Source: Gemmatimonadales bacterium
GTDB lineage: Bacteria > Gemmatimonadota > Gemmatimonadetes > Gemmatimonadales > GWC2-71-9
Direction of reading: 5' to 3'
Length of the DNA stretch: 58,878 bases
Assembly: GCA_031404115.1 (NCBI GenBank)
Contig: JANNGX010000051.1
Span: forward strand, 1 to 58,878
Shown: positions 36,110 to 53,711 of the stretch, piece after piece
How the letters are laid out: the number at the start of each line of letters is the position of its first letter
Numbering within the stretch: the stretch's first letter is position 1
Program-made: the position numbers and the translations under genes
Notes under the pieces: model-generated
Database searches by the model: none
The model's input: only the letters and a program-made list of their open reading frames with translations
Told to the model about the DNA's origin: nothing

Positions 36110-36180
36110 TCCGAACAACCTCCCAAAAGAACCGCCCAAGCTGGGCGGAGGACCCCGCGTCCGGTCGGATCGCGGGAGCA

Positions 36181-36254
36181 TGGGCGAAGAGGGATTCGAA
36201 CCCCCGACATCCTGCGTGTAAGGCAGGCGCTCTGAACCGCTGAGCTATTCGCCC
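36181..36254 (-). tRNA. tRNA-Val (anticodon TAC)
   Basis: Hand-folded cloverleaf of GGGCGAATAGCTCAGCGGTTCAGAGCGCCTGCCTTACACGCAGGATGTCGGGGGTTCGAATCCCTCTTCGCCCA: anticodon loop CTTACAC, T-loop TTCGAAT, 74 nt. Confidence 0.9.
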
Positions 36255-36343: not shown

Positions 36344-36535
36344 TCAGAGTGCGATAGCCAACGGGAAGAGCACGCAATAACCAAGCACCAACAGCACGGC
36401 CGCGAGGCTCGCCGCTCCGGCGCTGAGCGTAAGATAGCCCGCGACGAGGCAGACCGTTGCCGCCACGAGCATGATCACGTTCCGGCGACCCAGGAGGCCT
36501 CGACGCCCGCTGACGTTCGGTTCTGAAGAAGCCAT
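36344..36535 (-). CDS. small two-TM membrane protein (63 aa)
   Basis: ATG at 36535 gives MASSEPNVSGRRGLLGRRNVIMLVAATVCLVAGYLTLS..AAVLLVLGYCVLFPLAIAL. It starts 13 nt after the stop of the preceding gene and is the last gene of the che/mgl block. Confidence 0.45.
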   Translation of the reverse strand: MASSEPNVSGRRGLLGRRNVIMLVAATVCLVAGYLTLSAGAASLAAVLLVLGYCVLFPLAIAL

Positions 36536-36548
36536 AAGTCTTTGAAAA

Positions 36549-37385
36549 CTAAGGCGCTGGACCGGCTTCATCAAGCGGCTCGCCCTCCGTCTCGACGGGG
36601 ACCGTCCAGCCCTGGTCCAGAGCCAGGCGGCGCGGACGGTCCCGACGGCGGCGATACCAGTACGCCCAAATTACCGCTCCTGCGATAATCAGCCAGAACC
36701 CCCCCGCCACGGCCCAGACTACCAGCCCGTACCGGCTCCGGACGTCCTTTCGCCACTCCACCTCGAACTGCGCCGTTCGAGAACCGGTCGTGGCCAGCAC
36801 CGCGTCATCGAATCCTTCCCCAGCCGCGAGCCGGGAAAGGAGCGGGACCAGCGAATGCTCCGGATGCCGGCGCGCCAGCATGGTCACTGCCGAGGCTGCC
36901 AGGCCGTACGCCGCCTGCGCAGTCGAGGCGTTGGCGCGGAGTGACCGGTCAAGTTCGAAGAAACCGGGGATGGCGCCGCGCGCGACGGTCAGATTGAGCT
37001 GGAGGAGCTCGAAGCGGTCCCACTCGCCCGCCGCCACCGCGGCGTACCCTTCATCGAACCAGAGTGGCACCCGCACCCGCACGGCCGCATGCAGGGCCAA
37101 GTGGGCCAGCTCGTGCCGGAGCGTGCGGTGCGGATCGCCGGCGTCCACCCGGATCACGATGGTGCGGGCTCCGGGGAGCGCGAATCCCGCGCCCCAGGAT
37201 GGGGCTCGGCCCTCCATGACCGAATCGAGCGGCGCGGCGCCGCGCACGACGATGAGCCGGAGCGGCCCCGGTTCGCGGCGGCCCAGTCCGTACCAGACCC
37301 GCGGCACCCCGGCCTCCTCGCCCAGGCCGATGGCGAGCGGGAGGTCGGCCTTCCGGGCCGTGACCTGGACCTCGCCAACCCGCAC
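36549..37385 (-). CDS. gluzincin-like (HExxH ... WFDEGYA) putative metallopeptidase with C-terminal TM helix
   Basis: RHELAHLALH followed by PLWFDEGYAAVAAGEW resembles the M1-like MA-clan pattern. The C-terminal YGLVVWAVAGGFWLIIAGAVIWAYWY is a TM helix. The start is ambiguous: GTG 37574 or 37502 overlaps the upstream gene by 148 or 76 nt, and the next canonical start is GTG 37385. Confidence 0.55.
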   Translation of the reverse strand: MRVGEVQVTARKADLPLAIGLGEEAGVPRVWYGLGRREPGPLRLIVVRGAAPLDSVMEGRAPSWGAGFALPGARTIVIRVDAGDPHRTLRHELAHLALHAAVRVRVPLWFDEGYAAVAAGEWDRFELLQLNLTVARGAIPGFFELDRSLRANASTAQAAYGLAASAVTMLARRHPEHSLVPLLSRLAAGEGFDDAVLATTGSRTAQFEVEWRKDVRSRYGLVVWAVAGGFWLIIAGAVIWAYWYRRRRDRPRRLALDQGWTVPVETEGEPLDEAGPAP

Positions 37386-37426
37386 GCCCAGGTATCCGGA
37401 CGGCGTGCCTTGCAGGAGCGCCAGGC

Positions 37427-38290
37427 TCAGGAGGAACCGGAGCGAGGCACCTCCTCGCCCCTCGCGGTCGTGTCGAGAAGCTCCTGACAGCGGCGGGCCC
37501 ACGGTGCGAAGCGATTGGCTCCCGCACCCTGTTCCCAGGTAGCCCGGGCCGTATCGCGCTGCCCGGCGAACCACTGGGCCCGGCCGAGATCGTAGTAGGC
37601 CTCGATCAGGTTGGGTCCCAGCACCAGCGCCTTCTTGAGGAAGGACTCGGCATCGGCCATCATGCCGCGTTCCAGGTACACCAGGCCGAGGTAGTAGTTC
37701 GCGTACAGCGTGGCCTTGCGGTCGTTGTCGAGCCGGATCACCCGGGACAGGTGTTCGATGGCCTCGCCGAAAATCTTCTTCTTGAGGCAGATATAGCCGA
37801 CGTTCACGCGGGCCAGCGCATTGGCCGGCTCTTTGATCAGCACCTTCGAGAAGGTGACGAGCGCGTCGTCGTACTGCTCCGACAGCATCTCGGCCCAGCC
37901 GAGCAGGGAGAGCGCCTGCGGGTCGCCCGGGGAGAGTTCCAGCGCGCGGTTGAGCGCCTGGATCGCTCCCGGAGGATCCCCGAGCGAAATCAGGCTCCAG
38001 CCCTTTTCGATGTAGGTCGAGGCGCCCAGATGATCCCGGTGCAGCTGGGGCACCGGCGCCGCGCCCGCGTCGCTGGCTGACTGCTTGTAGCGGTCCACCA
38101 GGCCACGGATCTCTTCCTTGAGCTCCGCGAGGTCGCCCAGCGCGCCATCCACGCGCTTGAAGAAGCCGATGATCCGGCGTTTGACCTCCTCGCGCTGGAG
38201 CCGGGCCGGCGAGGCGTCCAGGGCGGCGGCGATGTCCCGGAATTCCTCCCGGAGCGCCGCCACGATCGGATCGGGAGTCGGACCGGTCAC
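37427..38290 (-). CDS. TPR-repeat protein (287 aa)
   Basis: N-terminal helical region followed by 4-5 TPR units (e.g. AIQALNRALELSPGDPQAL, AIEHLSRVIRLDNDRKATLYANYYLGLVY). GTG overlaps the cheD stop (GTGA). Confidence 0.7.
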   Translation of the reverse strand: MTGPTPDPIVAALREEFRDIAAALDASPARLQREEVKRRIIGFFKRVDGALGDLAELKEEIRGLVDRYKQSASDAGAAPVPQLHRDHLGASTYIEKGWSLISLGDPPGAIQALNRALELSPGDPQALSLLGWAEMLSEQYDDALVTFSKVLIKEPANALARVNVGYICLKKKIFGEAIEHLSRVIRLDNDRKATLYANYYLGLVYLERGMMADAESFLKKALVLGPNLIEAYYDLGRAQWFAGQRDTARATWEQGAGANRFAPWARRCQELLDTTARGEEVPRSGSS

Positions 38291-38778
38291 AACTCCACTT
38301 TTCCGTGCTCGTAGGACGAGACGATGACCCGGCCGGTGTCGAGGTCGAAATCCACCGAGCGACCGAAGTCGCGGCCGACCGCCTCGCCGACCACCTGAAT
38401 GCCGTGCCGATGCAGAACTTCGCGTGCGGCGTGCACGTTCCGCTCGCCCATCTGGATGGTGCCGGCCGGCTGGAGCGAGGCGAACATGCTGGCCCCCCCC
38501 ACGAGCCTCGCGGTGAGCCGCCGCGACACGGCGCCCATCGCCAGGACCCGCTCGTTCAGGAGGGCCACTGCCGTCGGCGCGAAGCGGCCGGGGGCATCGG
38601 CGCGGGGCCGCCCGACGTTGGTGGAAGGCAGCAGCACGTGGGCCAGGCCGCCCACCTTGGCCATCGGGTCGTACAAGATGACGGCGACGCAGCTTCCCAG
38701 CGCCAGCGCCGTGAGCGTGGCAGGCGCCTTGGCCACCTCGATCGCCGAAATGCCGACGAAGATCCTCGGGGCAGTCAC
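38287..38778 (-). CDS. cheD: chemoreceptor glutamine deamidase CheD
   Basis: 163 aa from GTG 38778, overlapping the cheR stop (GTGA). Motifs LTALALGSCVAVILYDP, GGLAHVLLPS and IGERNV-like MGERNV. The ORF-track version (to 38961) runs into cheR. Confidence 0.9.
   Translation of the reverse strand: MTAPRIFVGISAIEVAKAPATLTALALGSCVAVILYDPMAKVGGLAHVLLPSTNVGRPRADAPGRFAPTAVALLNERVLAMGAVSRRLTARLVGGASMFASLQPAGTIQMGERNVHAAREVLHRHGIQVVGEAVGRDFGRSVDFDLDTGRVIVSSYEHGKVEL
38493..38500. repeat. C8/G8 homopolymer inside cheD (in frame as given)
   Basis: ggcccccccc at 38491-38500. It encodes VGGA on the minus strand. Confidence 0.9.
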
Positions 38779-39593
38779 GGCGCCCTCCGGTAAATGCGAT
38801 GAGTGATATCGACCGGCACCAACCGGGGCTCCGGCAGTGCCACCAGCGATTCGGTGCGTCCCAGCATTAACAGCCCGCCCGGTGTGAGGGCGCGGAAGGC
38901 GGAATCGAGGACCCGGCGCTGGCCTTCCCGTCCCAGGAAGATCAGCAGATTCCGGCAGCAAATCAGATCGCAGGATTCCGGCGCGGTCGCGACCGTCGTC
39001 AGGTCTTCCCGGCGAAACGTGAGGCGGGAACGCAACTCGGATTCCACTTCGAAGCAGCCGTCATGGATGCTGCCGTGGTTGCGCGCCATGACCTCCCGGA
39101 TCGCCACGGCGGCCGGTGGCTGATAGAGACCCGCTTCGGCCTGGACCAGTGCCTGGGGATCCACATCGGAGGCGTGGACCCGGATCCGGTCGGCCGGGAT
39201 CCCGCCCTGCCGCACGGCGTGATCGGACAGCAACATCGCGAGCGTCCACGCCTCCTCCCCCGTGGCGCACCCCATGCTCCAGGCGGTAATCGCGCCGCGA
39301 GCCGTGCCGGTGCGCTCGGTTTCGAGCACATCCCTGAGCCGCTGCCAGCTGTCCGGGTTTCGGAAGAAGCCGGTGACCCTCACCGAAATCGTGTGCAAGA
39401 GACGATCCACTTCGCCGGGATCCTCCCGCAGCATGGCGGCGTACGCGAGCAGGGAATCGGCGCGGAGCGCGCGCATCCGCACCTCGATACGGCGAACCAG
39501 GCAGGAGTCCTTATACCACTCGAACCCCGCAGCCCCGCTCCGGGCCAGCTGATCGATTACCGCCACGAGTCCCAAGTCCTCGCGCCCGGTCAC
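38775..39593 (-). CDS. cheR: chemotaxis protein methyltransferase CheR
   Basis: 272 aa from GTG 39593, overlapping the upstream stop (GTGA). FFRNPDSW, WSMGCATGEEAWTLAMLL, DLICCRNLLIFL. Confidence 0.9.
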   Translation of the reverse strand: MTGREDLGLVAVIDQLARSGAAGFEWYKDSCLVRRIEVRMRALRADSLLAYAAMLREDPGEVDRLLHTISVRVTGFFRNPDSWQRLRDVLETERTGTARGAITAWSMGCATGEEAWTLAMLLSDHAVRQGGIPADRIRVHASDVDPQALVQAEAGLYQPPAAVAIREVMARNHGSIHDGCFEVESELRSRLTFRREDLTTVATAPESCDLICCRNLLIFLGREGQRRVLDSAFRALTPGGLLMLGRTESLVALPEPRLVPVDITHRIYRRAP

Positions 39594-41203
39594 GACATCC
39601 GCAGGGTATCGAGGTTGGCCCGGGCGAGCTGGTGCCCGGGGTTCAGCGCCACGGCGCGCTCCCAGCATTCGCGGGCCCGGGGACCATTGCGCTCCCGGAA
39701 GGCAAGATTGCCCAGCTTGAAATAGACATCGTCACCGAGGGTGGGATCGAGTGCCGTGGCACGCTCGTAGAGCGTCGCCGCATCCTCGTAGCGGCCGGAG
39801 CGGTAACAGAGGTCGCCCAGGTTCTTGAATGGCTGGGGCAGCGAGGCGTCTTCGGCGATCGTTTGCCGGAGCATGGTTTCCGCTTCCGCCACCGAGCCGG
39901 TTGCCTCCATGAGCACGGCGCAATTATTCCGGAGCACCACGTCCTCCGGATGCCGCTCGGTACCCTCGAGCGCCAGGCCAAGCGCGTACTCGAGATCTTC
40001 GGTGCCGACCGCGGCGCGGGTCGCGGCCCAGTACCAGAGCGCGGGCGGCGGATCCCGCAGCAGTTCCCGGGCCCGTTGCAGTCGCTGGCGCGCCACGCCA
40101 GCGTCGTGGCGTTCGAGCGCCAGGATACCCCAGCTGGTGTGAATCCTCGGATCGTCCGGCGCGCGGCTGGCGGCTTCCGCCAGCACGGTTTCGGCCTGGT
40201 CGAGCCGGCCCATGTGCTCCAGCGCCACCCCCAGGTTGTGCAGCAACGCGGCCCGGGGTCCGCTCCGGTCCAGCGCCTGACGGAAGTGGTCCGCGGCCTC
40301 GGCCCACTGATGCTGGCGCGCGGCAATGAGCCCCAGATAGAACGGAGCGCTTCCTTCGGCCGGGCGGAGCTCGGCCACGCGGCGGAACTCCCGCAGCGCC
40401 TCGTCCAGCATGTCGGTGCGGTAGAAGGCGACGCCAAGGTTGCGGTGCTCCTCGATCTGGGCCTCGAGCAGTCGCGATGGCGCCGCCATCGAGGACACCC
40501 CGACCTTGTGCGCGAGCCCGGCGGTCACCAGGCCGTAGAGCGCCTGCCCCGCTTCGAACTCGGAGAGGCCCGACGCGTCGATCACGGCCCGCAGGTCGCG
40601 GCGACCGTCCAGAAGCGGGAGTATCCGCCGCTGCGCCTCGGTAAACTCGGACTGGTGGCCGGCGACTTGGCCCTCGAGAGCTGAGTAGATCAGGTCGAAG
40701 CTGGGGATCTTCTTCTCTATCAGGCTCCATTCGTCGACCCGGCGCGCGCCTTCGAGGAGCAGCGATTCGGGATTGATCTTCTCGAGCAGATCTTCCGAAT
40801 CGGGGTGGACGCCGGCCTCGAAACTGAAGGTGCCGGTGTTCCAGCCAAAGAGCGAATACACCGCTTCGTCGATCTGGATCCGCACGAACCGGCGGAGTCC
40901 CTCCGGAGCCAGGATCCCGAGGTTGACCAGCAGGTCGCCGATCCGGCGGCCGGGCGCGGTGTCCTGCAGCGCGAGGGCCTGATCGAGCTGGGCCCGGGTG
41001 ACGGTCCCGGTCGCGAGCAACATGTCGCCCAGGCGGTCCCGGCGATTCGTGATCGCGGCGTACGTGATCCAGCCTTCGTCGAAGAAAATCGAGCCGTGAC
41101 GCTGGCGGTCCGCGACGGACAGGCAGCCGGTACGCCTGCCCAGGAACAGGAGCTGGATCACATCGGGAAGGCTGGCCTCCTTGAGACTGCCCTTGATGGC
41201 CAT
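39590..41203 (-). CDS. PATAN (DUF4388) domain protein fused to TPR repeats (537 aa)
   Basis: The N-terminus MAIKGSLKEASLPDVIQLLFLGRRTGCLSVADRQRHGSIFFDEGWITYA is a canonical DUF4388/PATAN start. The C-terminal half has about 7 TPR units. No receiver domain. Its ATG shares one base with the stop of the AAA+ gene. Confidence 0.75.
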   Translation of the reverse strand: MAIKGSLKEASLPDVIQLLFLGRRTGCLSVADRQRHGSIFFDEGWITYAAITNRRDRLGDMLLATGTVTRAQLDQALALQDTAPGRRIGDLLVNLGILAPEGLRRFVRIQIDEAVYSLFGWNTGTFSFEAGVHPDSEDLLEKINPESLLLEGARRVDEWSLIEKKIPSFDLIYSALEGQVAGHQSEFTEAQRRILPLLDGRRDLRAVIDASGLSEFEAGQALYGLVTAGLAHKVGVSSMAAPSRLLEAQIEEHRNLGVAFYRTDMLDEALREFRRVAELRPAEGSAPFYLGLIAARQHQWAEAADHFRQALDRSGPRAALLHNLGVALEHMGRLDQAETVLAEAASRAPDDPRIHTSWGILALERHDAGVARQRLQRARELLRDPPPALWYWAATRAAVGTEDLEYALGLALEGTERHPEDVVLRNNCAVLMEATGSVAEAETMLRQTIAEDASLPQPFKNLGDLCYRSGRYEDAATLYERATALDPTLGDDVYFKLGNLAFRERNGPRARECWERAVALNPGHQLARANLDTLRMS

Positions 41204-43164
41204 CAGCGAAGCTCCGCCAGCAGCCGGTCGGCGACCGCGGGCCAGTGCATGACGGTCTTCTCCGGGCTTCGCACCTGCCCCATGCCCGGCGTGAGGATGC
41301 CGCTCCCGCGCCGGGGGTCGGGGCGCCGCACGCCGCGTGACAGGCCGATGTCCATCACGTCGAGGACTTCGCGCGCGAGGGCGGGGCTGGGCTCGACCTG
41401 CTGCGCCGCGGCCTCACCCAGGACCCGTTGCACCATGCCCTGCACCGCGCGCACCGAGTCGGCGGGACGAGCGGCGAGGAAGTCGGCGAGGGCTGCGTCG
41501 TCCGCCGCGGCGGAGCCGGCCAGCAGCCGCTTCACGACGGCGAGGCGGACCTCGCGGTCGGGAGACGGCAGCTCCACCGCCAGGCCGCCGCCCAGTCGTG
41601 CCAGGAGGCGACCGTCCAGCCCCTCGAGTTCTTCGAGCGGCCGGGTGGTGCTGAACACCATCTGACGGCGACCTTCGGTCAGCTCGCCGATCAGGAGGTT
41701 GAGCTCGTCCTGAGCGGCGCGATCGCCGGCCAGCAGATGCAGGTCATCGAGCAGCAGCGCCCCGACCCAGCCATAGCGATGCCGCCAGGACGCCAGCGCG
41801 TCGGGGTCCGGAAGGGCCCGAACCTCCGCGGCGAACGCGTGGCTGCCCAGGCAGGCGACCGGCGCCACCCCTGCCACCGCCAGCGCATTGCCCAGCGCGT
41901 GGAGGTAGTGGGTCTTTCCAGTACCGCTCGCCCCGATCACCACCAGTGGAGAGTAGCGCCGCCCCGGCTCGGCGATGATGTCCCGCGCCGCCATCATCGG
42001 GAGCCGAATCGACGGGCCTTCGGCGAAGTCTTCCCAGCGGTAGTGCGAAAGCGGGGCGGTCAGCGGGGCGCTGCGCGATCCGGCCTGCGCCACCAGCGCG
42101 CGGGCGGCCGCCACCTGGTCGGGGTCTCGGAACACTTCGGCGCCGGCGAGATCCGGCGCGAGCTGCGCGGCCTTCGCGCCCAGGGCAATGATCTCCGCGG
42201 CATCCGACTCGTAGGCGGCGAGGACCGCCTCGGGGTCGCCCGGCGCCTCATCGGCGAGCAGCGCCTCGAGACGCCGGGTGCGCAGCCCCTCCCCGCCCCA
42301 GCGCAGCAACGCCTCACCGATGCGCCGGCGCCAGCGGTCCACCTGTTCGGAGAGCCCGGCCGAAACCTCCGACAGGAACGCCCCGAACTCGTCACCACCC
42401 AACCCGGCCGGCACCGCGTCGGCCTCGACCTGAGGAACCGGCGCCACCGGCGCGCCGATCAGGAGCAGCGCATCGCGAGGGGAGAGCGGCAACGCGGTGG
42501 CCTCCTGAAATGCCACCAGGCGGGAGAGCGCACCCGTATAGTCGCGCATCGAGGCGAACTCGGCGTCGGCCACTGCGCGGACCACGTCATCGAGCAGCAC
42601 GGTCTCGTGCCCGTGCAGCCGGCGACGGAGGATCGCGTAGCGGGCCTCCGCGCCGGGCAACGAGAGCTGCACCGTGGTGCCCTCGCCGAGCCGGCGCAGC
42701 AGCCGGGCGTCCAGACCGGTCAGTTGCTCCACCGGCACGGAGGTGGCCACCACTACCTCGCGCCCCGCGCCGCGCCGCCCGTCCAGGAGGTCCGCAACCA
42801 GGCCCTGACAGTCCTGGTGTCGCGCCAGGTGCTCGAGGTCGTCGATCAGCACCAGGTCGGCGGCCTGGAGCTCGGCCCGGCACATCTCGCCTCGGGCCAC
42901 GAGAAGCGCCGACCGGTAGCGCTCGGCCAGCTCGCCCGGGTCGAACGATTCGACGACGGCGGTCGGATGCTGGGCCCGGATTCGACCGGCGATCGCCTGG
43001 AGCAGCTCGGTCTTTCCACTGCCGGAGGAGCCCACGATCACCAGCGGCGCAAAGGGGACGCCGCTCGCGTCGGCCACCGCGCGCGCGGCCGCCGCCGCGG
43101 GCCGGTTGGCCGCATCGAGCACGAAGGTCTCGAAGTCGGGCCGAGCCGTCAGCACACTGGTCAC
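41203..43164 (-). CDS. tandem DnaA/Hda-like AAA+ ATPase (two domain-III-like modules, no DnaA domain IV)
   Basis: 653 aa. Module 1: FETFVLDAANRPA, PLVIVGSSGSGKTELL, LVLIDDLEHL, VVVATSVPVEQLTGLDARLLRRLGEG. Module 2: PLVVIGASGTGKTHYL, LLLDDLHLLAGDRAAQDELNLLIGEL, MVFSTTRPLEELEGLDGRLLARLGGG. GTG overlaps the mglA stop (GTGA). Confidence 0.75.
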   Translation of the reverse strand: MTSVLTARPDFETFVLDAANRPAAAAARAVADASGVPFAPLVIVGSSGSGKTELLQAIAGRIRAQHPTAVVESFDPGELAERYRSALLVARGEMCRAELQAADLVLIDDLEHLARHQDCQGLVADLLDGRRGAGREVVVATSVPVEQLTGLDARLLRRLGEGTTVQLSLPGAEARYAILRRRLHGHETVLLDDVVRAVADAEFASMRDYTGALSRLVAFQEATALPLSPRDALLLIGAPVAPVPQVEADAVPAGLGGDEFGAFLSEVSAGLSEQVDRWRRRIGEALLRWGGEGLRTRRLEALLADEAPGDPEAVLAAYESDAAEIIALGAKAAQLAPDLAGAEVFRDPDQVAAARALVAQAGSRSAPLTAPLSHYRWEDFAEGPSIRLPMMAARDIIAEPGRRYSPLVVIGASGTGKTHYLHALGNALAVAGVAPVACLGSHAFAAEVRALPDPDALASWRHRYGWVGALLLDDLHLLAGDRAAQDELNLLIGELTEGRRQMVFSTTRPLEELEGLDGRLLARLGGGLAVELPSPDREVRLAVVKRLLAGSAAADDAALADFLAARPADSVRAVQGMVQRVLGEAAAQQVEPSPALAREVLDVMDIGLSRGVRRPDPRRGSGILTPGMGQVRSPEKTVMHWPAVADRLLAELR

Positions 43165-43763
43165 AGCGCCGATGGCCTGACGGCCAGTCGCTGGAGGACG
43201 AGGCCCGAGAGCGCCTTCAGGGTTTCGAACACCCCGGCGCCGTGGAGCGCATCGGCCGTCTGGCTCGGCACGCCACGAAAATTGAAGGCGTCGTCCAGGT
43301 CCGCTGGCGCCAGGATCAGATCGGGCGGAAGGTCCTGCTTGTTGTACTGAAGCACCAGAGGGAGCTGACGGATGTCCACGCCCTGTTCGAGAAGGTTTTC
43401 CTGCAGGTTCTGGAAGCTTTCCAGGTTGTCGTCGAAGCGGCGCGCCTGGCTGTCCACCACGAACACGACCCCGTCGGCACCCTGGAGCACCAATCTTCTG
43501 GTGGCATTGTAGTACACCTGGCCCGGCACGGTGTAGAGCTGGAACCGGGTGGTGAAACCGGAAATCATCCCCAGTTCGAGCGGGAGAAAATCGAAGAACA
43601 GGGTCCGATCCGACTGGGTGGCCAGCGACACCATGTTGCCCCTTCTATCCTCGGGGACCCGGCCGTGGATATAGAGCAAGTTAGTCGTCTTCCCGCATCG
43701 CCCTGGCCCGTAGTAGACCAGTTTGCAGGTGATTTCGCGGGTGGTGAAGTTTACCAGCGGCAT
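43161..43763 (-). CDS. mglA: Ras-like small GTPase MglA
   Basis: 200 aa, colinear with Myxococcus MglA. Motifs KLVYYGPGRCGKTT (P-loop), DRTLFFDFLP (intrinsic Arg region), YTVPGQVYY (Thr instead of Asp in G3, an MglA hallmark) and QYNKQD (NKxD). Confidence 0.92.
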   Translation of the reverse strand: MPLVNFTTREITCKLVYYGPGRCGKTTNLLYIHGRVPEDRRGNMVSLATQSDRTLFFDFLPLELGMISGFTTRFQLYTVPGQVYYNATRRLVLQGADGVVFVVDSQARRFDDNLESFQNLQENLLEQGVDIRQLPLVLQYNKQDLPPDLILAPADLDDAFNFRGVPSQTADALHGAGVFETLKALSGLVLQRLAVRPSAL

Positions 43764-43767
43764 GGGG

Positions 43768-44229
43768 TCATCGCCCGAACAGCGCCCGAAGGCTGCTGTT
43801 CAGTTCGGCTTCGAAGTCTTCGGCCAGCACCTGGCGGGGCGGCTCGTCGGCCGGCGCCGCGTTCGCCAGGTCCATGGCCATGCGGGCAAAAAAGAGCTGG
43901 ACCAATCCGAGTGATGTCTCCCCGCCGAACACCACCAGCCCCAGCCAGCGCCCCCGCGGGGTTTCGAAGGCGGCCAGGTAGACTCCCACCGCCGACCCAT
44001 GGTGAACCACAGCGCCCAGCGGACGGGAGCCCATCACCTTGGCGAGCTCGAAGGTGGAGGCCATGATGCCGGCGCCGAGCGCCGCCGCGGACATGACGTC
44101 GAGCGCCCGCGTGAACCCGTGCTGCGCCACCACCTGTCCCGAGGAGGTCATGAGGAGGGTGACCCGCGCGGCGGATTCGGCGAGGAAGGTCGTGAGGGGC
44201 GCTTCGACCCACGCCTCCAGCGCGCGCAT
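43768..44229 (-). CDS. mglB: Roadblock/LC7-domain protein, MglB-like (candidate GAP of MglA)
   Basis: 153 aa with a Roadblock pattern (VTLLMTSSGQVVAQHG...AAALGAGIMAS...GLVVFGGETSLGLV). It lies 4 nt upstream of mglA, the classical mglB-mglA order. Confidence 0.8.
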   Translation of the reverse strand: MRALEAWVEAPLTTFLAESAARVTLLMTSSGQVVAQHGFTRALDVMSAAALGAGIMASTFELAKVMGSRPLGAVVHHGSAVGVYLAAFETPRGRWLGLVVFGGETSLGLVQLFFARMAMDLANAAPADEPPRQVLAEDFEAELNSSLRALFGR

Positions 44230-44570
44230 CAGGCCGCCCGCCCGGCCGCGTCGAGCAGCCCCAGTCGCAGCTCGCCGGCGTTCACGTCCGGCGCCGCCAC
44301 GGCGACAATGAGCAATCCGCTCTGCCCCGGCGCGGCAAACAACGACCCGCTCGTCCCCGCCAGATGCATCATCACCGGTTCGGGCTGGCCCAGGGCGATG
44401 GTGACGCTCCGCATCCGCCCGGCCAGGCTCGCGGCGAGCGCCGCCACGGCGGAACCATCGACACCCTCCATCAGGGTATCGGCCACGACGAGCCCGTCAT
44501 CCCGCGACACGATCAGGACTCCGCGTACGCCGGGGATGCGGGTCAGCGCGGCGAGGACGGCGACGAGCAT
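44229..44570 (-). CDS. second Roadblock/LC7-domain protein (113 aa, MglC-like paralogue?)
   Basis: ATG at 44570 gives MLVAVLAALTRIPGVRGVLIVSRDDGLVVADTL...GLLIVAVAAPDVNAGELR, a typical Roadblock pattern. It has one-base overlaps at both ends. Confidence 0.7.
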   Translation of the reverse strand: MLVAVLAALTRIPGVRGVLIVSRDDGLVVADTLMEGVDGSAVAALAASLAGRMRSVTIALGQPEPVMMHLAGTSGSLFAAPGQSGLLIVAVAAPDVNAGELRLGLLDAAGRAA

Positions 44571-45364
44571 CAGACCAGTTCCTCCAGCCACCGTCGGGCG
44601 GACGAGGCGGCGCGCTCCGCCAGGAGCGCCAGCCGCCCCGCGGGAATCTCGCGCGGCCGCATGACCAGCAACACCGAATCGCCGGTGGGAGCCCGGAGCT
44701 CCAGGTGCGCCGGCCCGCCCTCGAGCGCGATGCGCCGCCAGGGACCGAGCCCGAGCAGCCGCGCGGCCCGCTCCGCTTCCCTGGTGACGCCGGCCAGGGC
44801 CGCGGCCACCGCGTCGCCGGCATCGGCCCCGTTCGCGTCGCTCACGCCGCCGGCGAGTACCCGCCCGTCGCGATCCACCAGGAGCGCCTGCCCCGGCTCC
44901 GGCTCCAGCGCGCGGGAGGGATCGGGAGCGGGTTCGGTGAAGCCGGGAACCAGCCGGGCGCCGGTGGCGCCACGCACCCGGTCGAGCGCGCTGCGGAGCA
45001 CCGCATCTTCGGGGGCCAGTTCGACCGCGCGCTCCAGGTAGCGAAGGCTGCGAGAGTGATCGCCGGCCCGGTAGCAGAGGAAGGCCAGGCCCTTGTGCGC
45101 GCCGATGTGCCCGGGGTCGAGCCGGAGCACCGTCGTCCAGGCGTCGAACGCCAGGTCGCCCTCGCCGCGGTCACTTCGAATCCGGGCCAGCAGATCGTAG
45201 GCCCCGGCCATTTCGGGATAACGGGCGGCACCCTGCTCGGCCACGGTCAGCGCGGATTCCAGCTGGGCGCGGCGTCGCAGTGCTTCCGCGAGCGGAAGGA
45301 ACGCCAGGCTGGAGGGATCCCGGGCCAGCTGCGTCGTCAGCGCCTGGATGTCGTCCGCGATCAC
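44570..45364 (-). CDS. TPR - Roadblock/LC7 fusion protein (264 aa)
   Basis: The N-terminal about 130 aa are TPR units (LPLAEALRRRAQLESALTVAEQGAARYP..., AFDAWTTVLRLDPGH...). The C-terminal about 100 aa are Roadblock-like (ALLVDRDGRVLAGG...AVAAALAGVTREAERAARLLGLG...SVLLVM). GTG overlaps the upstream stop. Confidence 0.65.
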   Translation of the reverse strand: MIADDIQALTTQLARDPSSLAFLPLAEALRRRAQLESALTVAEQGAARYPEMAGAYDLLARIRSDRGEGDLAFDAWTTVLRLDPGHIGAHKGLAFLCYRAGDHSRSLRYLERAVELAPEDAVLRSALDRVRGATGARLVPGFTEPAPDPSRALEPEPGQALLVDRDGRVLAGGVSDANGADAGDAVAAALAGVTREAERAARLLGLGPWRRIALEGGPAHLELRAPTGDSVLLVMRPREIPAGRLALLAERAASSARRWLEELV

Positions 45365-46509
45365 TTCGCCCCCCGCAATCGTTGCACGAGATGGCGGGCC
45401 GCGGGCACCACGCCGCTCACTTCCTCCACATGCGATTCCTCATCGGTGGCCTTGGCCGGGAGCGCAAGCCAGGCCTCGAAGCTGTGCACCGACTCGTCGA
45501 GCCGCCCGGCGCCCAGCAGTGCCCAGGCGAGCAGCCGGAGCGGCTTGGCGCCCCCGGGATCGAGCCGCACCGCTTCCCGCAGCGCGCGCTCGGCCTCGGG
45601 ATAGCGCCGCTCCGCCAGAAGAATCGCGCCCGCCAGCACGTGGGTACGCGGATCGTCCGGGAAGGCGTCGAGCGCCGCCTGCGCCGCCGAGCGTGCCGCC
45701 TCGCCATTGCCGGCGCGAAGCTGCTCCTCACCCTGCCGGAGCAGGGCCTCGGCGTCGGCCCGCGGCGCCGCGCGCGCCGAGTCCAGCGCGGGGTCACGCA
45801 GCACAATAACGCCGGCACAGGCGAGGCCGAAGAGCGCCCGCGCCACGTCGAATTCCGGCTCCCCGAGCGACAGCGCGATGGCCTGCACGTCGCGTTCCCC
45901 GTCGGCCGCGGAAATGACCCGCCATTCGAACGGCGTCAGGCTGAGGGACCCCGCTTCGTTGGAAACCGGGGGCGCCAGCCGCGCGATGACCCCGACGTGC
46001 GCCACCCGGGCCTGGATCCGCGACCACTCGTCGATCCGCCGGGCGCCCTCGAGCAGGAGGTGCTCCACCGAAATGCGCAGATCGGTTTCCCGGGGGATTG
46101 CCTCGGGAGCGCACTCCTCGAAAATGAAATACCCCTCGGACCAGCCCAGCATGGTGAACACCACGTCCTCGATATGGGCCCGCACCTGCGTGGTGAGCTC
46201 GCGGGCACCGAGGGCGCCCGCCGCCACCAGGATCTCGCCGATGCGGCGCTGGTCGCCCTGATCCTGCGCGGCGCGGGCCTGGAGCAGATCCTCTTGCCGG
46301 ATTTTGCCGGCGCGCAGCAGCGCCGTGCCAAGCGGGTGCGGATTCGACTGAATTGCTGCGGCCACCACCGCAGCCTCGTGGAACCAGATGGTGCCCTCGT
46401 TCTGGCGGAGCTCGGATGTGATCAGGAGCGCGCCGGTCTTCCGGCCCAGGTCGAGCAGCTGGAAGACATCGTGAATGCCCAGCTCGCGGAGCGGCCCCTG
46501 AATCGCCAT
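45361..46509 (-). CDS. PATAN (DUF4388) domain protein fused to TPR repeats (382 aa)
   Basis: N-terminus MAIQGPLRELGIHDVFQLLDLGRKTGALLITSELRQNEGTIWFHEAAVVAA, with C-terminal TPR units. It is a paralogue of 39590..41203. Confidence 0.75.
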   Translation of the reverse strand: MAIQGPLRELGIHDVFQLLDLGRKTGALLITSELRQNEGTIWFHEAAVVAAAIQSNPHPLGTALLRAGKIRQEDLLQARAAQDQGDQRRIGEILVAAGALGARELTTQVRAHIEDVVFTMLGWSEGYFIFEECAPEAIPRETDLRISVEHLLLEGARRIDEWSRIQARVAHVGVIARLAPPVSNEAGSLSLTPFEWRVISAADGERDVQAIALSLGEPEFDVARALFGLACAGVIVLRDPALDSARAAPRADAEALLRQGEEQLRAGNGEAARSAAQAALDAFPDDPRTHVLAGAILLAERRYPEAERALREAVRLDPGGAKPLRLLAWALLGAGRLDESVHSFEAWLALPAKATDEESHVEEVSGVVPAARHLVQRLRGAK

Positions 46510-46510
46510 C

Positions 46511-49201: not shown

Positions 49202-49205
49202 CGCG

Positions 49206-49829
49206 TCAGTTGACGATGCGAATCGAGTCGAAAATCGCCTGCAGGGCGGGAGGGTCCGGCATCAGGAGGAATTGCCCGGTGAGCGCCCGCGCGGAGCCCT
49301 CGATCCGGAACGTGGTCTCGACGCAGAACAGCGCATCCCGCTCGTGCCCGAAATTCAGATACGCCGTGGTGAGCACCGCCCCGGCGAGGTCCACGACCAG
49401 GGCCGGCACCGAGGGCACCAGCATCATGCCGAGAAAATCGGAGAGGGCATTCAAGTACGCGGAACAGAGGATGTTCCCGGTTTCCTTGATGGTGGACTGC
49501 TCCATCGCGTCGAAGCCGGCCTGACCGGTACGGGGGCGGCGCAACAGCATCTCGCAGAGGGAGTAGGCCGACTCCTGATCCAGGACCACCAAGGTGCGGC
49601 CGGTCAGGTCGCCCATCACGTGCATCAGCACGCCGGCGATCACCGCGTCCGACGGGCCCACCAGCTCGGCCACTTCCTCGAGCCGGCGGACGCTCACTTC
49701 GGGCACGCTGATCATGATCTTGCGGCTGGTCATCTGGGAAAGCGCCGTGGCGGCGTGGCCGGCCCCGATATTGGCCACCTCCCGCAACGCGTCACGCTCC
49801 AGGTCTGACAGAATCCTCCGGTCTGCCAT
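49206..49829 (-). CDS. cheC: CheY-P phosphatase CheC
   Basis: Two CheC/FliY active-site repeats, ERDALREVANIGAGHAATAL and EQSTIKETGNILCSAYLNAL. ATG at 49829 is preceded by GGAGGA. The ORF-track start at 49841 is GTG. Confidence 0.85.
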   Translation of the reverse strand: MADRRILSDLERDALREVANIGAGHAATALSQMTSRKIMISVPEVSVRRLEEVAELVGPSDAVIAGVLMHVMGDLTGRTLVVLDQESAYSLCEMLLRRPRTGQAGFDAMEQSTIKETGNILCSAYLNALSDFLGMMLVPSVPALVVDLAGAVLTTAYLNFGHERDALFCVETTFRIEGSARALTGQFLLMPDPPALQAIFDSIRIVN

Positions 49830-49841
49830 CGAGTCCTCCAC

Positions 49842-51420
49842 CTAGAAGAGAGCGGCCGGATCCAGAATGAGCGCCGGTGAACCGTCGGGCAGAATCGTGG
49901 CGCCGCCCACCCAGGCCGGCAGCCCGAGCGGGGCGGCGAGCTGCTCCACCACGACGTCCTGTTGTCCGAGCAACGCGTCCACGACCAGGGCGGCCCGCCC
50001 CCCCGCCGGCGTCCACCACGACCACCGGTCGGCGGCCCTTTCCTGCTCGGGTCAAACCGACGACGTCCCGGAGATCCGCCGTGGGAAGCGGCGACCCCCG
50101 TAAGGTAACCTCGGACTCTGCCTGCTCATGCACGGCCGCCTCGGCCAGCACCCCGAAGGGAATCGCGTATCGCTCGTCCTCGACACCGACCAGCAACGCC
50201 CGCAGAATCGCCCGGGTCACCGGGAGGTGCATCAGGAAGGTGGTGCCCCGCCCCGGCACCGTCTTGAGCTCCATCCGGCCACCCAGGGAGCGGACCCGCG
50301 TGAGCACGGCATCGATTCCCACGCCGCGTCCGGAGACGGAAGTGACGTGGGCCCTCGTCGTGAATCCGGGGTGCGCCAGCAGACGAAGCAGCGCCACGGC
50401 GTCCGGCACCGGAGCGCCGGCCTCGAGCAAACCGCGTTCCACCGCGCGGTCCCGAACCCCGGCGCGGTCGATCCCTCGGCCATCGTCCGCCACGGTGACG
50501 GTCACCTCGTCCCGCACCCGCTCGGCCCGGAGCCGGATGGTGCCTTCGGAATCCTTGCCGGCGGCGACCCGCTCCGCCCCGGTTTCCAGGCCGTGGTCCG
50601 CGGCGTTGCGAAGCAGGTGGGTGAGCGGCTCGGTGAGCGCGTCCAGCACCGAGCGGTCTACCTCGATGTCGGTGCCCTGAAGCTCGAGCCGGATTTCCTT
50701 GCCCAGCTCGCGACCCAGGTCCCGCACCATGCGGGGGAAACGGTCGAACACCTCGTCGACCGGCGCCATCCGGGCCCGGAGCACCCCGCTCTGGAGGCCG
50801 GCCACCAGCGCCGAGATCCGGCCACTGACCTGTTCCAGATCGGAGCCGATCTCGCGATCGGCGATCGCCGAGAGCCGGTTACGGGCCACCACCAGCTCCC
50901 CCACGTCGTTCACCAGGGAATCGAGCCGCTCGAGGTCCACCCGTACCTGCCGCGCGACAGGGCGGACCGGGGCGGTGACGGCGGTACTCAGCCGGGCATC
51001 GCGGCGCCGCTCCGGAATCGGGATTTCGGCGGTTCGCATTTCGATCGTGGGAACCAGCCGGAAGAGTGCTTCGATCAGCTCGAGGTCCACCACCGGCGTG
51101 TCTCCGCGGCCCACCGCTTCCACCCCTTCGGCCAGCGCGTCCACCGCCCGGAAGAGGCCATCGATGATGGCCCGCGATGGCTCGACCGTGCCCTCCCGGA
51201 TGCCGGCCAGCAGTTGCTCCGCCGCATGGGCCAGCTCGGACACCGGGTCGAAGCCCATTGCCGCCGACGAGCCCTTGATGGAATGGAACGCACGAAAGAG
51301 CTCGGCCACCGGAGTGGACGAGCCGGGATTACGCTCCAAGGCAAGGAGCAGCTCGTTGCAGCGCTGGAGGTGGTCGCGACTGTCGGAGAGGAAGAGAGCG
51401 GTATACCGGGCGAGATCCAC
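49842..51420 (-). pseudogene. cheA: chemotaxis histidine kinase CheA, reading frame interrupted at a C7/G7 tract (true frameshift, slippage site or sequencing error)
   Basis: Hpt (FHSIKGSSAA), dimerisation and HATPase (NAADHG, DDGRGID, GRGVGID, GRGTTF) regions are intact in the frame ending at 49792. After ...VVVVDAGGG the text becomes arginine/glycine junk. The -1 shifted frame continues as RAALVVDALLGQQDVVVEQLAAPLGLPAWVGGATILPDGSPALILDPAALF*, a perfect CheW-like domain end with TAG at 49842-44. Confidence 0.85.
49998..50004. repeat. C7/G7 homopolymer at the cheA frame break
   Basis: gcccccccg at 49997-50005. Removing one C fuses the two cheA frames seamlessly. Confidence 0.9.
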
Positions 51421-51426
51421 CGCAGC

Positions 51427-51789
51427 TCACCCGAGCAATCGCTGCACCGCTTCAAGCACCCGCGACGGCTGGAAGGGCTTGACCACGAAATCCTTGGCGC
51501 CCGCCTGGATCGCCTCGACCACCAGTGCCTGCTGTCCCATTGCGCTGCACATCAGGATCTTGGCCTCCGGGTGGTCCTTGCAGATTTCCCGGACCGCTTC
51601 GATGCCGCCCATGTCCGGCATGACGATGTCCATCGTGACGAGATCGGGTTTGAGCTGGCGATATTTCTCCACCGCCTGGGCGCCGGATTCCGCCTCGCCG
51701 ATCACCTCGTACCCGGCCTGGGTGAGAATGTCGGTAATCATCGTCCGCATGAAGATCGCGTCGTCGCAGACGAGCACGGTATGGCCCAC
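51427..51789 (-). CDS. cheY: single-domain response regulator CheY
   Basis: 120 aa. VLVCDD, TMDIVMPDMGG (phospho-Asp), MCSAMG, VVKPF. GTG start with AAGGGGG upstream. Confidence 0.9.
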   Translation of the reverse strand: MGHTVLVCDDAIFMRTMITDILTQAGYEVIGEAESGAQAVEKYRQLKPDLVTMDIVMPDMGGIEAVREICKDHPEAKILMCSAMGQQALVVEAIQAGAKDFVVKPFQPSRVLEAVQRLLG

Positions 51790-51806
51790 GGTGGCACCCC
51801 CTTCGT

Positions 51807-52184
51807 TTACGCCTTGGTCGCTTCGGGCCGGAACAGTGGCCGGACCAGGGCTTCGACGTCGAGCATCGCGAGCCGGCCGGCGGTTTCGGTAGCATGGAGG
51901 TCTTCCACGTCATCCACTTCGATCGCGACCCGTCCGTCGTACATCGCGAGCACGAGCAGGTAGTCGCTGGCACCGCTCTCGGACTCCGCCAGGAGCGCGG
52001 CCCCGCTCACCACCGTGACCAATCCACCCCGAACGTTGACCACCCCCCGAATCTGGGCCGCCGCTCCAGGAATGCGAATAACCCCCGGCGCGGTGACGAC
52101 CTCGCGAACCGCCGCGACGGGGACTGTAAAGCGCCTGGAGCCGACGCGACACACCACGACACGCCCGCCGGCGGCATTACTCAT
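51807..52184 (-). CDS. cheW: coupling protein CheW
   Basis: 125 aa, CheW-like pattern (RFTVPVAAVREVV..IRGVVNVRGGLVTVV). ATG overlaps the rluD stop (ATGA). Confidence 0.9.
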   Translation of the reverse strand: MSNAAGGRVVVCRVGSRRFTVPVAAVREVVTAPGVIRIPGAAAQIRGVVNVRGGLVTVVSGAALLAESESGASDYLLVLAMYDGRVAIEVDDVEDLHATETAGRLAMLDVEALVRPLFRPEATKA

Positions 52185-53074: not shown

Positions 53075-53198
53075 CGAACCCGCCGCGACGATACGGGCCG
53101 CCTGGGTCCGCGAGAGAGCGAGCTGGTCGGCGAGGAATCGATCGATGCGTTCGGCCGTCGCGGCCGCGACAGAAAAGGTAACGGGAGGCAGCGGCGGC

Positions 53199-53711
53199 TC
53201 AGGCGGACGGCGCGGTGTGGCTCCGCGACCGGCGCGCGTCCTCGAGCCAGAGCGACATGGCGAGGGCGATCGCGCCGCAACTCACCCCCATGTCGGCCAC
53301 GTTGAAGGTCGGCCAGCGGTGCGCGCCGATGCCCACATCGATGAAATCCACCACCCCCTGCGCGGAGCGAATGCGGTCCACCAGATTCCCCGCGGCCCCG
53401 CCGGCCACCAGCCCGCAGGCCACCTGACGCATATAGTCCCGGGGCGCGCTCGACCTGGCCAGGCGATACAGCAGCACGACGGCGAGCACCGCCACGCCGA
53501 GGAAGATCCAGCGCGACCAGGGCCCCAGATGCAGCCCGAACGCCGCCCCCTGGTTGTAGACCAGCCGGAACTGCACCCAGTCTCCGAGCACCTCGACCGC
53601 CGGGACGGGCAGCAGCGACTGCTCCGCCACGCGCTTGGTGACGAAATCGATGACGAGAAGGACCGACGCAATCGCCCAGAAAAGGCGGCGGCCCTCAGCG
53701 GCGCTTCTCAT
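53199..53711 (-). CDS. lspA: lipoprotein signal peptidase II
   Basis: YNQGAAFGL, NLVDRI, VVDFIDVG, TFNVADMG. I prefer the ATG at 53711 (MRSAAEGRRLFWAIASVLLVIDF). Confidence 0.9.
   Translation of the reverse strand: MRSAAEGRRLFWAIASVLLVIDFVTKRVAEQSLLPVPAVEVLGDWVQFRLVYNQGAAFGLHLGPWSRWIFLGVAVLAVVLLYRLARSSAPRDYMRQVACGLVAGGAAGNLVDRIRSAQGVVDFIDVGIGAHRWPTFNVADMGVSCGAIALAMSLWLEDARRSRSHTAPSA

Follow-up and report, generated by a model that had tools for sequence, protein, structure and literature searches.

A chemosensory, MglA-type GTPase and tandem DnaA-like ATPase gene cluster of Gemmatimonadales as a candidate polarity-signalling system

In soil, Gemmatimonadota rank with the most abundant phyla, and hardly anything is known of their cell biology. 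One locus of a Gemmatimonadales bacterium (assembly GCA_031404115.1, contig JANNGX010000051.1, positions 1 to 58,878 of the forward strand) raises the question of whether a long run of genes mixing a chemosensory phosphorelay, a Ras-like GTPase and a duplicated DnaA-like ATPase constitutes a single system and, if so, which of its parts are the core and on what it acts. This whole stretch of 58,878 nucleotides (nt), whose guanine plus cytosine (GC) content is about 69%, is called here the window. In it, 17 consecutive minus-strand genes occupy positions 36344-52184, in the order cheW, cheY, cheA, cheC, a gene for an 896-residue protein made of tetratricopeptide repeats (TPR896), a first PATAN-TPR gene (PATAN1), a TPR-Roadblock fusion, a Roadblock gene, mglB, mglA, the gene of a tandem DnaA-like AAA+ protein (AAA2x), a second PATAN-TPR gene (PATAN2), cheR, cheD, a 287-residue TPR protein gene (TPR287), a Peptidase_MA_2 gene and the gene of a 63-residue membrane protein. 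An original prediction, made from the letters of the window, had proposed these genes, in this order, as one self-contained signalling-to-polarity unit with a GTPase/Roadblock/AAA+ core. The order is borne out by the listing of open reading frames (ORFs) and by translation, and all the domain calls, including PATAN, Roadblock and DnaA-like, hold in Pfam, NCBIfam and PDB searches. The type of system, its conservation and its apparently undescribed nature also stand, but the self-containment, the boundaries, the state of cheA and the identity of the core genes had to be revised, as detailed below.

The reading that we favour, to which we give an even chance, is that of one signalling system extended throughout the Gemmatimonadales, accreted around an older core and resembling the Frz/MglAB circuits, which would set a polarity sensitive to cyclic di-guanosine monophosphate (c-di-GMP), probably that of type IV pili. 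Comparison of loci across the phylum shows an older core in which AAA2x is predicted to be translationally coupled to a PATAN-TPR protein, followed by the putatively membrane-anchored HExxH protein and by a small membrane protein; in the deeper lineages, a gene for an MglB-like Roadblock protein precedes that of AAA2x. As the same comparison shows, the Gemmatimonadales have added to this core a group-1 MglA, an MglB, two further Roadblock proteins, the second PATAN-TPR protein, the long TPR protein and a phosphorelay of the CheC/CheD type.

The evidence comes in the first place from the distribution of the genes. One genome per species was scanned for relatives of AAA2x, and at least 517 genomes encode one; the best 80 loci are all labelled Gemmatimonadota except one, which is probably a mis-binned contig. 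When 23 proteins of the window were compared by tblastn with 83 loci, 38 were found to span the interval from rluD, the upstream neighbour of cheW, to the peptidase gene, and in 38 out of 38 (counted at species level, within Gemmatimonadales) the genes are colinear and co-oriented. Across these loci the median identity is 90% for CheY, the most conserved protein of the cluster, 81% for MglA, 44% for AAA2x and 35% for CheW, and the 63-residue protein is kept in 36 of them. The conserved neighbourhood that had been foreseen is thus found by a search seeded with AAA2x, a protein carried by more than 500 species genomes, and blocks of the cluster recur outside this context.

Because the flanking housekeeping genes (rluD, rsmH) are equally syntenic, evidence independent of general synteny was sought, and several kinds of loci provide it. 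One relative (L003/L010) is devoid of TPR896, PATAN1, cheR and cheD; two others (L069 and L071) have neither mglB nor mglA; another one (L085) has lost the three Roadblock genes and cheR, which leaves the series PATAN1-MglA-AAA2x-PATAN2, a layout matching the entry 'PATAN>MglA>-PATAN>' given for GAU_1409 of Gemmatimonas aurantiaca in Table S2 of Wuichet and Sogaard-Andersen (2015). In deeper lineages (L084, L091 and the P0251 contig), a minimal module without che genes and mglA follows rluD; it consists of the MglB-like Roadblock gene (missing in the P0251 contig), AAA2x, PATAN-TPR and the peptidase gene, and the small downstream ORF is kept in L091 and in the P0251 contig. Furthermore, in a locus of 54% GC (L090) the genes of AAA2x and PATAN-TPR together with cheR, cheD, cheB and an orthologue of TPR287 adjoin thiE/accC and not rluD/dcw, and in a Gemmatimonadota locus of 49% GC (L089) a homologue of TPR896 is located directly upstream of the AAA2x gene. 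It is on the basis of these module-wise losses, minimal modules and displaced loci that AAA2x and PATAN-TPR are considered as the persistent core, and the Che and Mgl parts as travelling additions. This changes the picture of a GTPase-centred core, since MglA, MglB, the Roadblock proteins and the che genes come and go, and AAA2x with the downstream PATAN-TPR persists through most of the family, even where MglA and che are missing.

A further layer of evidence resides in the junctions between genes. With the best-supported starts, eight of the 16 internal junctions are stop/start overlaps of 1 or 4 nt, and the remaining gaps measure +17, +6, +4, +1, +4 and +13 nt; ahead of the peptidase gene, for which the start is uncertain, the gap is about +41 nt, and the one separating cheA from cheC is 0 to +12 nt after the correction of cheA described below. 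The borders of the modules are equally tight: +4 nt between cheC and TPR896, -4 between PATAN2 and cheR, -4 between cheD and TPR287, -4 between MglA and AAA2x, and -1 between AAA2x and PATAN2. Moreover, the packed array does not begin at cheW, because its ATG overlaps the rluD stop by 4 nt (ATGA). At the other end, a tRNA-Val gene directly follows the last gene and a terminator-like hairpin lies just past it, likely representing the predicted 3′ end of the transcription unit; accordingly, the boundaries differ on both sides from those originally drawn. Within the cluster, scans for promoters and terminators gave nothing above shuffle expectation except this hairpin past the tRNA-Val gene, such scans being uninformative at 69% GC. 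As for the shared orientation of the 17 genes, which had been given as a sign of unity, it is real but not special, since among about 50 genes identified in the window all are on the minus strand except mazG (7112-7894, plus strand). Indeed, a conserved region of about 600 kb, with nearly all genes in one orientation and high strand bias, has been described in Gemmatimonadota (PMC11237797), and the one-strand layout of the window fits it. In this phylum, co-orientation and synteny are therefore weak evidence for a single unit; the real evidence, as read from the sequences, would be that starts and stops overlap and that genes come and go in modules.

What kind of protein is AAA2x, the persistent member of the cluster? 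It matches DnaA in the PDB with an E-value of 7e-25, and each of its halves superposes on DnaA domain III with a target-normalised template-modelling (TM) score of 0.87-0.88 and a root-mean-square deviation of 2.4-2.6 Å (Foldseek). From an alignment of 53 homologues, AlphaFold2 gave a model with a mean predicted local distance difference test score of 86 and a predicted TM score of 0.46, a low value that leaves the relative orientation of the two domains uncertain. No match to Bac_DnaA_C (domain IV) or DnaA_N (domain I) was obtained with Pfam, both models being able to detect a true DnaA (P0237), and the absence of the DNA-binding domain IV indicates that AAA2x is not a DnaA initiator. The C-terminal module has an invariant Walker A, Walker B and sensor-2 arginine, and its box VII arginine is almost invariant; the N-terminal module, which scores as Hda-like in NCBIfam, has lost the Walker A lysine in some members. 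A conserved helical linker carries the motif APDLAGAE.F.DPDQ, and the C-terminal tail (residues ~620-653; window positions 41203-41300) is predicted to be disordered, with invariant G622, E635, K636, W641 and P642, a combination that suggests a short linear motif or peptide ligand for a TPR domain.

An exhaustive search with a hidden Markov model recovers many full-length colinear members of the AAA2x family, of decreasing similarity, and all those with organism names belong to Gemmatimonadota. One colinear homologue (L086, 9249-12939) is fused to a C-terminal receiver (REC) domain; Hpt, REC, Hpt and REC genes follow the fusion, and a hybrid kinase and a response regulator (RR) of the RR-HD-GYP type are encoded upstream on the opposite strand. 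To judge by the receiver fusion, the family serves as a signalling output and not as a replication factor. Giant proteins of ~920-1990 residues which combine MshEN with widely spaced DnaA-like AAA+ modules (L087, 2681-13179; L088, 4309-15923) were considered as fusion evidence linking AAA2x to pili, and discarded: they are embedded among PilD, PilB, PilT, PilC, PilS and PilR homologues, in DNA of 56-63% GC, but their modules are ~1400 residues apart and not colinear with AAA2x (BLASTP). Not being colinear orthologues, they offer weak support, by analogy only. Altogether, this family of tandem, non-replicative DnaA-like ATPases appears to be uncharacterised.

The gene of PATAN2 follows that of AAA2x with a start/stop overlap in every Gemmatimonadales locus and in most of the deeper relatives examined. 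Both PATAN copies of the window are joined to TPR repeats and carry no REC domain in Pfam searches. Inside the PATAN domain of PATAN2, an insertion holds two tandem motifs, RLGDMLLATGTVTRAQLDQALALQ and RIGDLLVNLGILAPEGLRRFVRIQ, that fit the published MshEN motif RLGxx(L/V/I)(L/V/I)xxG(L/V/I)(L/V/I)xxxxLxxxLxxQ. PATAN2 scores 51.4 bits, for a cut-off of 38, against NF053729, an NCBIfam model of MshE-related c-di-GMP binding, and its insertion aligns to the N-terminal domain of Vibrio cholerae MshE (5HTL, E 1.7e-9) and to Thermus thermophilus PilF (6f8l, E 1e-10). Among 66 PATAN2 orthologues, the first motif and most of the key positions of the second are conserved, the first arginine of the second motif excepted; in PATAN1, the first MshEN-like motif is degenerate and the published motif is matched in part only. 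The PATAN2 insertion is thus homologous to the MshEN c-di-GMP-binding domain, and PATAN2 is a predicted c-di-GMP receptor. PATAN domains have been described in Synechocystis as output domains binding PilB1 and PilC; some PATAN proteins have been annotated with a GspE_N/MshEN domain, and mglA and mglB are often neighbours of PATAN genes (10.1101/2021.06.11.447907). In the open-access full text, we found no statement or test of c-di-GMP binding by a PATAN insertion.

The GTPase of the cluster carries the P-loop GPGRCGKTT, the intrinsic arginine finger R53, T78 (a threonine replacing the aspartate of G3), the catalytic Q82 and the NKQD motif. Its full-length similarity to Myxococcus xanthus MglA, the P-loop, R53, T78, Q82 and the adjacent cognate mglB place it in group 1. 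The mglB homologue lies 4 nt upstream of mglA; its product has no match in Pfam and, by homology only, is a candidate GTPase-activating protein (GAP) for MglA. Two more Roadblock proteins are encoded just before, one alone (its likely start, the ATG at 44570, gives 113 residues) and one fused to TPR; an MglC-like identity was considered for both and not retained, since only generic Roadblock matches were obtained. As a separate observation, in the locus where TPR896 and AAA2x genes are paired (L089), two bactofilin genes (1765-2667) are found ~3 kb upstream of the pair. Bactofilins act together with an MglA paralogue in Myxococcus.

The phosphorelay consists of CheA, CheW, CheY, CheC, CheR and CheD. 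In the CheC/CheD-containing (F1-like) chemotaxis systems, the set comprises CheB as well, together with cognate MCPs and a flagellar or archaellar output. CheY shows the residues D9, D10, D54, S82 and K104; CheA has a single Hpt domain with H46 and no REC domain; the likely start of cheC is the ATG at 49829, with GGAGG just ahead. The closest NCBIfam models are those of haloarchaeal CheA and CheY and of Thermotogales CheC. The short CheW spans just positions 2-94 of the 138-position Pfam model and is reminiscent of FrzB of Myxococcus, a truncated CheW that does not bind CheA. In the present assembly, cheA is broken at a homopolymer of seven G within the P5 domain: the intact CheA of four relatives (L001, L004-L006) aligns in one frame as far as residue 472 and in a different frame from residue 475, and the removal of one G yields a CheA of 525 residues with a complete P5 and a stop at 49842-49844, just before cheC. 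The protein of 542 residues and its overlap of 38-50 nt with cheC are therefore artefacts of the shifted frame. The indel would be either an assembly or sequencing error or a genuine, possibly slippage-prone, frameshift.

In 27 of the 38 loci, cheB and two full-length cheW genes are inserted between cheD and TPR287, and the lineage of the window has lost them; the cluster described here is thus a derived, cheB-less version of 17 genes of a cluster of about 20. Profile searches of the window proteins found neither cheB nor pil nor flagellar genes, and a gene for a methyl-accepting chemotaxis protein (MCP) was seen neither in the window nor in the cluster of any relative examined. With no MCP in the cluster, cheB and two cheW lost and cheA frameshifted in the assembly, the system is not self-contained, contrary to what had been proposed.

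Putting these elements together, a mechanism may be sketched. MCPs encoded elsewhere would activate CheA via CheW, and CheR, CheD and CheC, plus CheB in most relatives, would provide adaptation and signal termination. Phosphorylated CheY would be the diffusible output acting on the PATAN-TPR scaffolds, in what could be seen as a split version of the cyanobacterial PATAN-REC regulators of the PatA type. The active pole would be set by MglA-GTP and MglB, as it is in Myxococcus, and tuned by the two accessory Roadblock proteins; c-di-GMP would enter through the MshEN-like insertion of PATAN2. In turn, AAA2x, probably a DnaA-like oligomer docked to the TPR proteins via its conserved C-terminal tail, would contribute an ATP-dependent step of assembly or disassembly, or of timing. 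The target would be the type IV pilus motor (PilB/PilC), and the output the direction, the polarity or the on/off state of surface motility.

By analogy with better known systems, this motor is the most likely target. MglA controls the polarity of type IV pili in Myxococcus, Bdellovibrio and Thermus, and PilB, MshE and PilF sense c-di-GMP through an MshEN domain at their N-terminus. Where their action has been investigated, PATAN, group-1 MglA and MshEN have type IV pili as their target. Flagellar genes are rare in the soil members of the phylum, and type IV pilus genes are reported from all environments except marine ones (PMC10581226), which also favours the pilus. In addition, many of the genomes bearing the cluster have isolate names in the style of soil catalogues.

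More speculatively, the module formed by Roadblock, AAA2x, PATAN(MshEN)-TPR and the HExxH protein could be an ancient machine specific to Gemmatimonadota, in which the DnaA fold was recruited outside replication as a nucleotide-dependent polar scaffold or switch, becoming in Gemmatimonadales a hub for Che, GTPase and c-di-GMP inputs in cis. We regard this proposal as tentative and rather doubtful; if true, it would define a new class of bacterial polarity or motility controller and the first natural operon physically linking a chemosensory system to MglA and MglB.

Several observations weigh against the accreted, pilus-directed system proposed above. Neither the window nor any of the Gemmatimonadales loci examined contains a pil gene, so the assignment of the type IV pilus as target rests on analogy. 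Cultured Gemmatimonas species are flagellated (PMC10581226), and the Che module is most like the CheC/CheD-containing systems whose usual output is flagella or archaella. The cheA gene is frameshifted in this assembly, although intact in relatives. The cluster sits between divIVA-ileS-lspA-rluD and the dcw (division and cell wall) genes, a position that would also fit a role in the cell cycle; and the apparent conservation is inflated by the high synteny and co-orientation that generally prevail in this part of the chromosome (PMC11237797). Some of these points would be natural if a flagellar chemotaxis operon of the CheC/CheD type were interrupted by, or just placed beside, an unrelated Mgl/PATAN/AAA+ module, both being retained by regional synteny and orientation: a single gene out of about 50 identified in the window is on the other strand, rluD and rsmH are as syntenic as the cluster they flank, the phylum possesses a conserved region of high strand bias (PMC11237797), the Che proteins best match flagellar or archaellar-type systems and cultured Gemmatimonas species do have flagella (PMC10581226). 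Nevertheless, stop/start overlaps cross the module borders, the che genes form two blocks around the Mgl/AAA+ genes in all 38 loci, cheR, cheD, cheB and TPR287 travel with AAA2x-PATAN-TPR in another chromosomal context (L090), and the cluster is widespread in lineages reported to be flagella-less (PMC10581226), so that an association of independent modules seems to us improbable.

The neighbourhood itself suggests another possibility, namely that a DnaA/Hda-like AAA+ protein responds to Che, MglA and c-di-GMP signals by modulating DnaA, the division site or the identity of the poles. Not only the cluster but also the minimal modules come directly after yggS, divIVA, ileS, (lspA) and rluD, and in Gemmatimonadales directly before rsmH, ftsL, ftsI ... 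ftsZ; both AAA+ modules are of the DnaA domain III type, the N-terminal one Hda-like, with the TM scores to DnaA given above. A precedent exists as well: in other bacteria, e.g., Caulobacter, the cell cycle is under the control of c-di-GMP and of polarity factors. However, a neighbourhood within a region of core genes is weak evidence, and L090 and L089 carry the core away from division genes. AAA2x has neither domain I nor domain IV of DnaA, no clamp-binding motif of the Hda type is seen by eye at its N-terminus (no formal test was made), and PATAN, group-1 MglA and MshEN are tied experimentally to type IV pili and not to replication; a cell-cycle controller is thus, in our view, an unlikely identity for the system. 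With the same signalling logic, the target could also be some other envelope machine, such as secretion, exopolysaccharide export or gliding/adhesion, with the HExxH and small membrane proteins as the effector end. It is true that the Peptidase_MA_2 and the small hydrophobic proteins belong to the minimal core, and that motifs of the MshEN type likewise have a regulatory role in type II secretion ATPases and in the glycosyltransferase NfrB (PMC12448109), to which a weak match exists here; but no such machinery was found in or beside any locus examined and the precedents of PATAN and MglA point to type IV pili, which makes this option very improbable. Finally, an anti-phage defence role was considered and rejected: a PADLOC scan gave only short matches at the level of the Walker A motif, and the cluster is inherited vertically in a core-genome region.

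The features on which the above reading is based are collected in Table 1.

Table 1. Features of the cluster and of its immediate borders, from upstream to downstream (positions in the window)
Feature	Position	Strand	Basis
rluD (pseudouridine synthase), upstream neighbour	52181..53074	-	Pfam PseudoU_synth_2; junction; alignment to relatives' rluD
cheW, 125 aa	51807..52184	-	Pfam CheW E 2e-16
cheY, single-domain receiver, 120 aa	51427..51789	-	Pfam Response_reg E 7e-32
cheA as assembled, 542 aa	49792..51420	-	Pfam Hpt, dimerisation, HATPase, partial P5/CheW; frame analysis
G7 homopolymer, cheA frame break within P5 domain	50003..50011 (about)	-	tblastn with intact CheA of L001, L004-L006
cheC (CheY-P phosphatase family)	49206..49841	-	Pfam CheC E 6e-23; NCBIfam Thermotogales CheC E 6e-50
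TPR896, all-TPR protein, 896 aa	46511..49201	-	Pfam TPR families only
PATAN1, PATAN(DUF4388)-TPR paralogue 1	45361..46509	-	Pfam DUF4388 E 4e-28; motif analysis
TPR-Roadblock fusion, 264 aa	44570..45364	-	Pfam TPR_2 and Robl_LC7 E 3e-7
Roadblock/LC7 protein	44229..44591	-	Pfam Robl_LC7 E 9e-11; PDB Roadblock proteins
MglB homologue, 153 aa	43768..44229	-	PDB M. xanthus MglB E 3e-9, T. thermophilus MglB E 7e-6; NCBIfam MglB
MglA, group 1	43161..43763	-	PDB M. xanthus MglA (6hjh) E 3e-70, residues 1-193, full length
AAA2x, tandem DnaA-domain-III AAA+, 653 aa	41203..43164	-	Pfam Bac_DnaA, two stretches; alignments; AlphaFold2; Foldseek
PATAN2, PATAN-TPR paralogue 2, 537 aa	39590..41203	-	Pfam DUF4388 E 3e-35 and TPR; synteny
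MshEN-type tandem 24-residue motifs, PATAN2 residues 57-80 and 87-110	40874..41035	-	NCBIfam, motif, PDB
cheR	38775..39593	-	Pfam CheR, CheR_N; GTG start 39593 overlaps PATAN2 stop (GTGA)
cheD	38287..38778	-	Pfam CheD E 2e-26; GTG start 38778 overlaps cheR stop
TPR287, TPR protein, 287 aa	37427..38290	-	Pfam TPR; start overlaps cheD stop
Peptidase_MA_2 (HELAH/HExxH) protein	36549..37385	-	Pfam E 6e-14; hydropathy
63-aa protein, two hydrophobic segments	36344..36535	-	hydropathy
tRNA-Val(TAC), directly downstream of last gene	36181..36254	-	ARAGORN; Rfam tRNA 73.8 bits
Terminator-like GC hairpin and T-rich tail	36122..36148	-	consensus scan; sequence

The Peptidase_MA_2 protein has a single C-terminal hydrophobic segment; the GTG at 37385, taken as its start, gives 278 residues. 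Genes were identified by homology, since at the GC content of the window a gene caller relying on third-position GC failed to tell sense from antisense frames. On one side, the cluster is flanked by yggS, divIVA, ileS, a dksA-like gene, lspA and rluD (52181-58509 region), and on the other by a complete dcw cluster comprising rsmH, ftsI, murE/F, mraY, ftsW, murC, ftsQ, ftsA and ftsZ, and then an M23 peptidase gene (17518-34122). Ahead of the first ATG/GTG/TTG of rluD, an S4-like N-terminal part of RluD is encoded in frame (53074-53281, minus strand), in a stretch of about 69 codons without a canonical start, which suggests a non-canonical start or an error. An Rfam scan of the window detected only two tRNAs: the tRNA-Val, whose sequence is conserved in one relative (L005), and a tRNA-Asp(GTC) at 34181-34256 on the minus strand, the two flanking a TPR gene with signal peptide (605 residues) downstream of the cluster. 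A frameshift in a downstream TPR gene of 629 residues was considered and rejected, since the out-of-frame conserved segment is the tRNA-Val gene and not coding sequence. Further away, a NosD/right-handed beta-helix and PA14 protein of 794 residues is encoded among housekeeping genes (7860-10244, minus strand). For three long minus-strand ORFs of 433, 402 and 595 residues (1851-3152, 2990-4198 and 15703-17490), Pfam gave no match at E <= 1e-5; the first overlaps the second by ~160 nt, and the third lies in the window's highest-GC stretch (73%).

To our knowledge, Myxococcus is the only case in which the wiring between chemosensory systems and Ras-like polarity switches has been worked out in detail; there, the components are dispersed around the genome, and it took genetics to find the links. 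Here, throughout a phylum-level lineage, a relay, a GTPase with its GAP homologue, further Roadblock proteins, TPR and PATAN proteins as candidate effectors and a predicted second-messenger sensor are encoded side by side, which provides from the start a list of interaction partners that can be tested in those Gemmatimonas species available in culture. Attention is also drawn to a family of non-replicative, duplicated DnaA-type ATPases as a signalling component, and to PATAN domains with MshEN-like insertions as likely, predicted c-di-GMP receptors. Parts of it have been noticed before. It has been reported that Gemmatimonadetes have group-1 MglA and that some mglA genes are neighbours of PATAN genes (Wuichet and Sogaard-Andersen, 2015, PMC4316618), the GAU_1409 entry mentioned above being one tabulated case. 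In the open-access full text, no published description was found of the che genes in cis, of the AAA+ family, of the minimal core or of the MshEN-like insertion in this context; the composite is not mentioned in the Guzzo 2015 and 2026 MglA papers, and a paper on the calcium transcriptome of G. phototrophica has nothing specific on the cluster. The novelty claimed at the outset therefore appears to hold for the composite, but not for the part of it already tabulated.

How, then, does this cluster stand among the known systems? With the Frz-MglA/MglB circuit of Myxococcus, which includes RomR/RomX, MglC, RomY and SgmX, it shares a Che relay, a group-1 MglA, an MglB, extra Roadblock proteins and long TPR proteins, a likeness that would make motility polarity its likely output. 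We know of no Myxococcus counterpart for the two PATAN-TPR proteins and the tandem DnaA-like AAA+ protein. The Frz system relies on the cytoplasmic MCP FrzCD, the CheA-receiver hybrid FrzE and the dual-receiver FrzZ, whereas none of these is found among the 17 products, whose sole receiver is the CheY of 120 residues, and CheC and CheD are present. Moreover, the mglA gene of Myxococcus is not near those of its partners (PMC4316618), while here all components are in one packed cluster.

The second resemblance is with the cyanobacterial Tax/Pix systems and their PatA-type regulators, in which Che-like genes also stand beside PATAN output proteins, with a c-di-GMP connection and PATAN as candidate effector-binding domain. 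However, PATAN is joined here to TPR and not to REC, a separate CheY serves as receiver, the surroundings contain no pil genes, and MglA, MglB and AAA+, lacking in Tax/Pix, are present. The cluster is not of the Pil-Chp type either: that system has a ChpA with multiple Hpt and a REC, PilG/PilH, the MCP PilJ and pil genes, in contrast to the single Hpt, the one CheY and the absence of MCP and pil genes in the window. The likeness to the Streptomyces conservons (CvnA-D) lies in a kinase, a Roadblock protein and an MglA-family GTPase encoded together. Conservons have a membrane kinase, CvnA, and a group-2 GTPase, CvnD, unlike the group-1 MglA and the CheA-based relay without membrane histidine kinase seen here; all 17 products are otherwise identified and none is CvnC, whose function is not known. 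Since its GTPase belongs to group 1 and it has no component of the CvnA or CvnC type, the cluster is not a conservon.

At the level of individual proteins, PATAN2 shares with the MshEN receptors (MshE, PilF, PilB) the two tandem 24-residue motifs, within residues 57-110, although the predicted pair is inside a PATAN domain and not at the N-terminus of a secretion ATPase. In a similar way, the two halves of AAA2x have the sequence and the fold of DnaA domain III, as in DnaA and Hda, but they are in tandem, with a linker and a tail specific to the family and without domains I and IV, are encoded together with signalling genes and, in one relative, are fused to a receiver. Altogether, the cluster would work like the Frz-MglA/MglB and Tax/Pix-PatA circuits, yet it belongs to neither.

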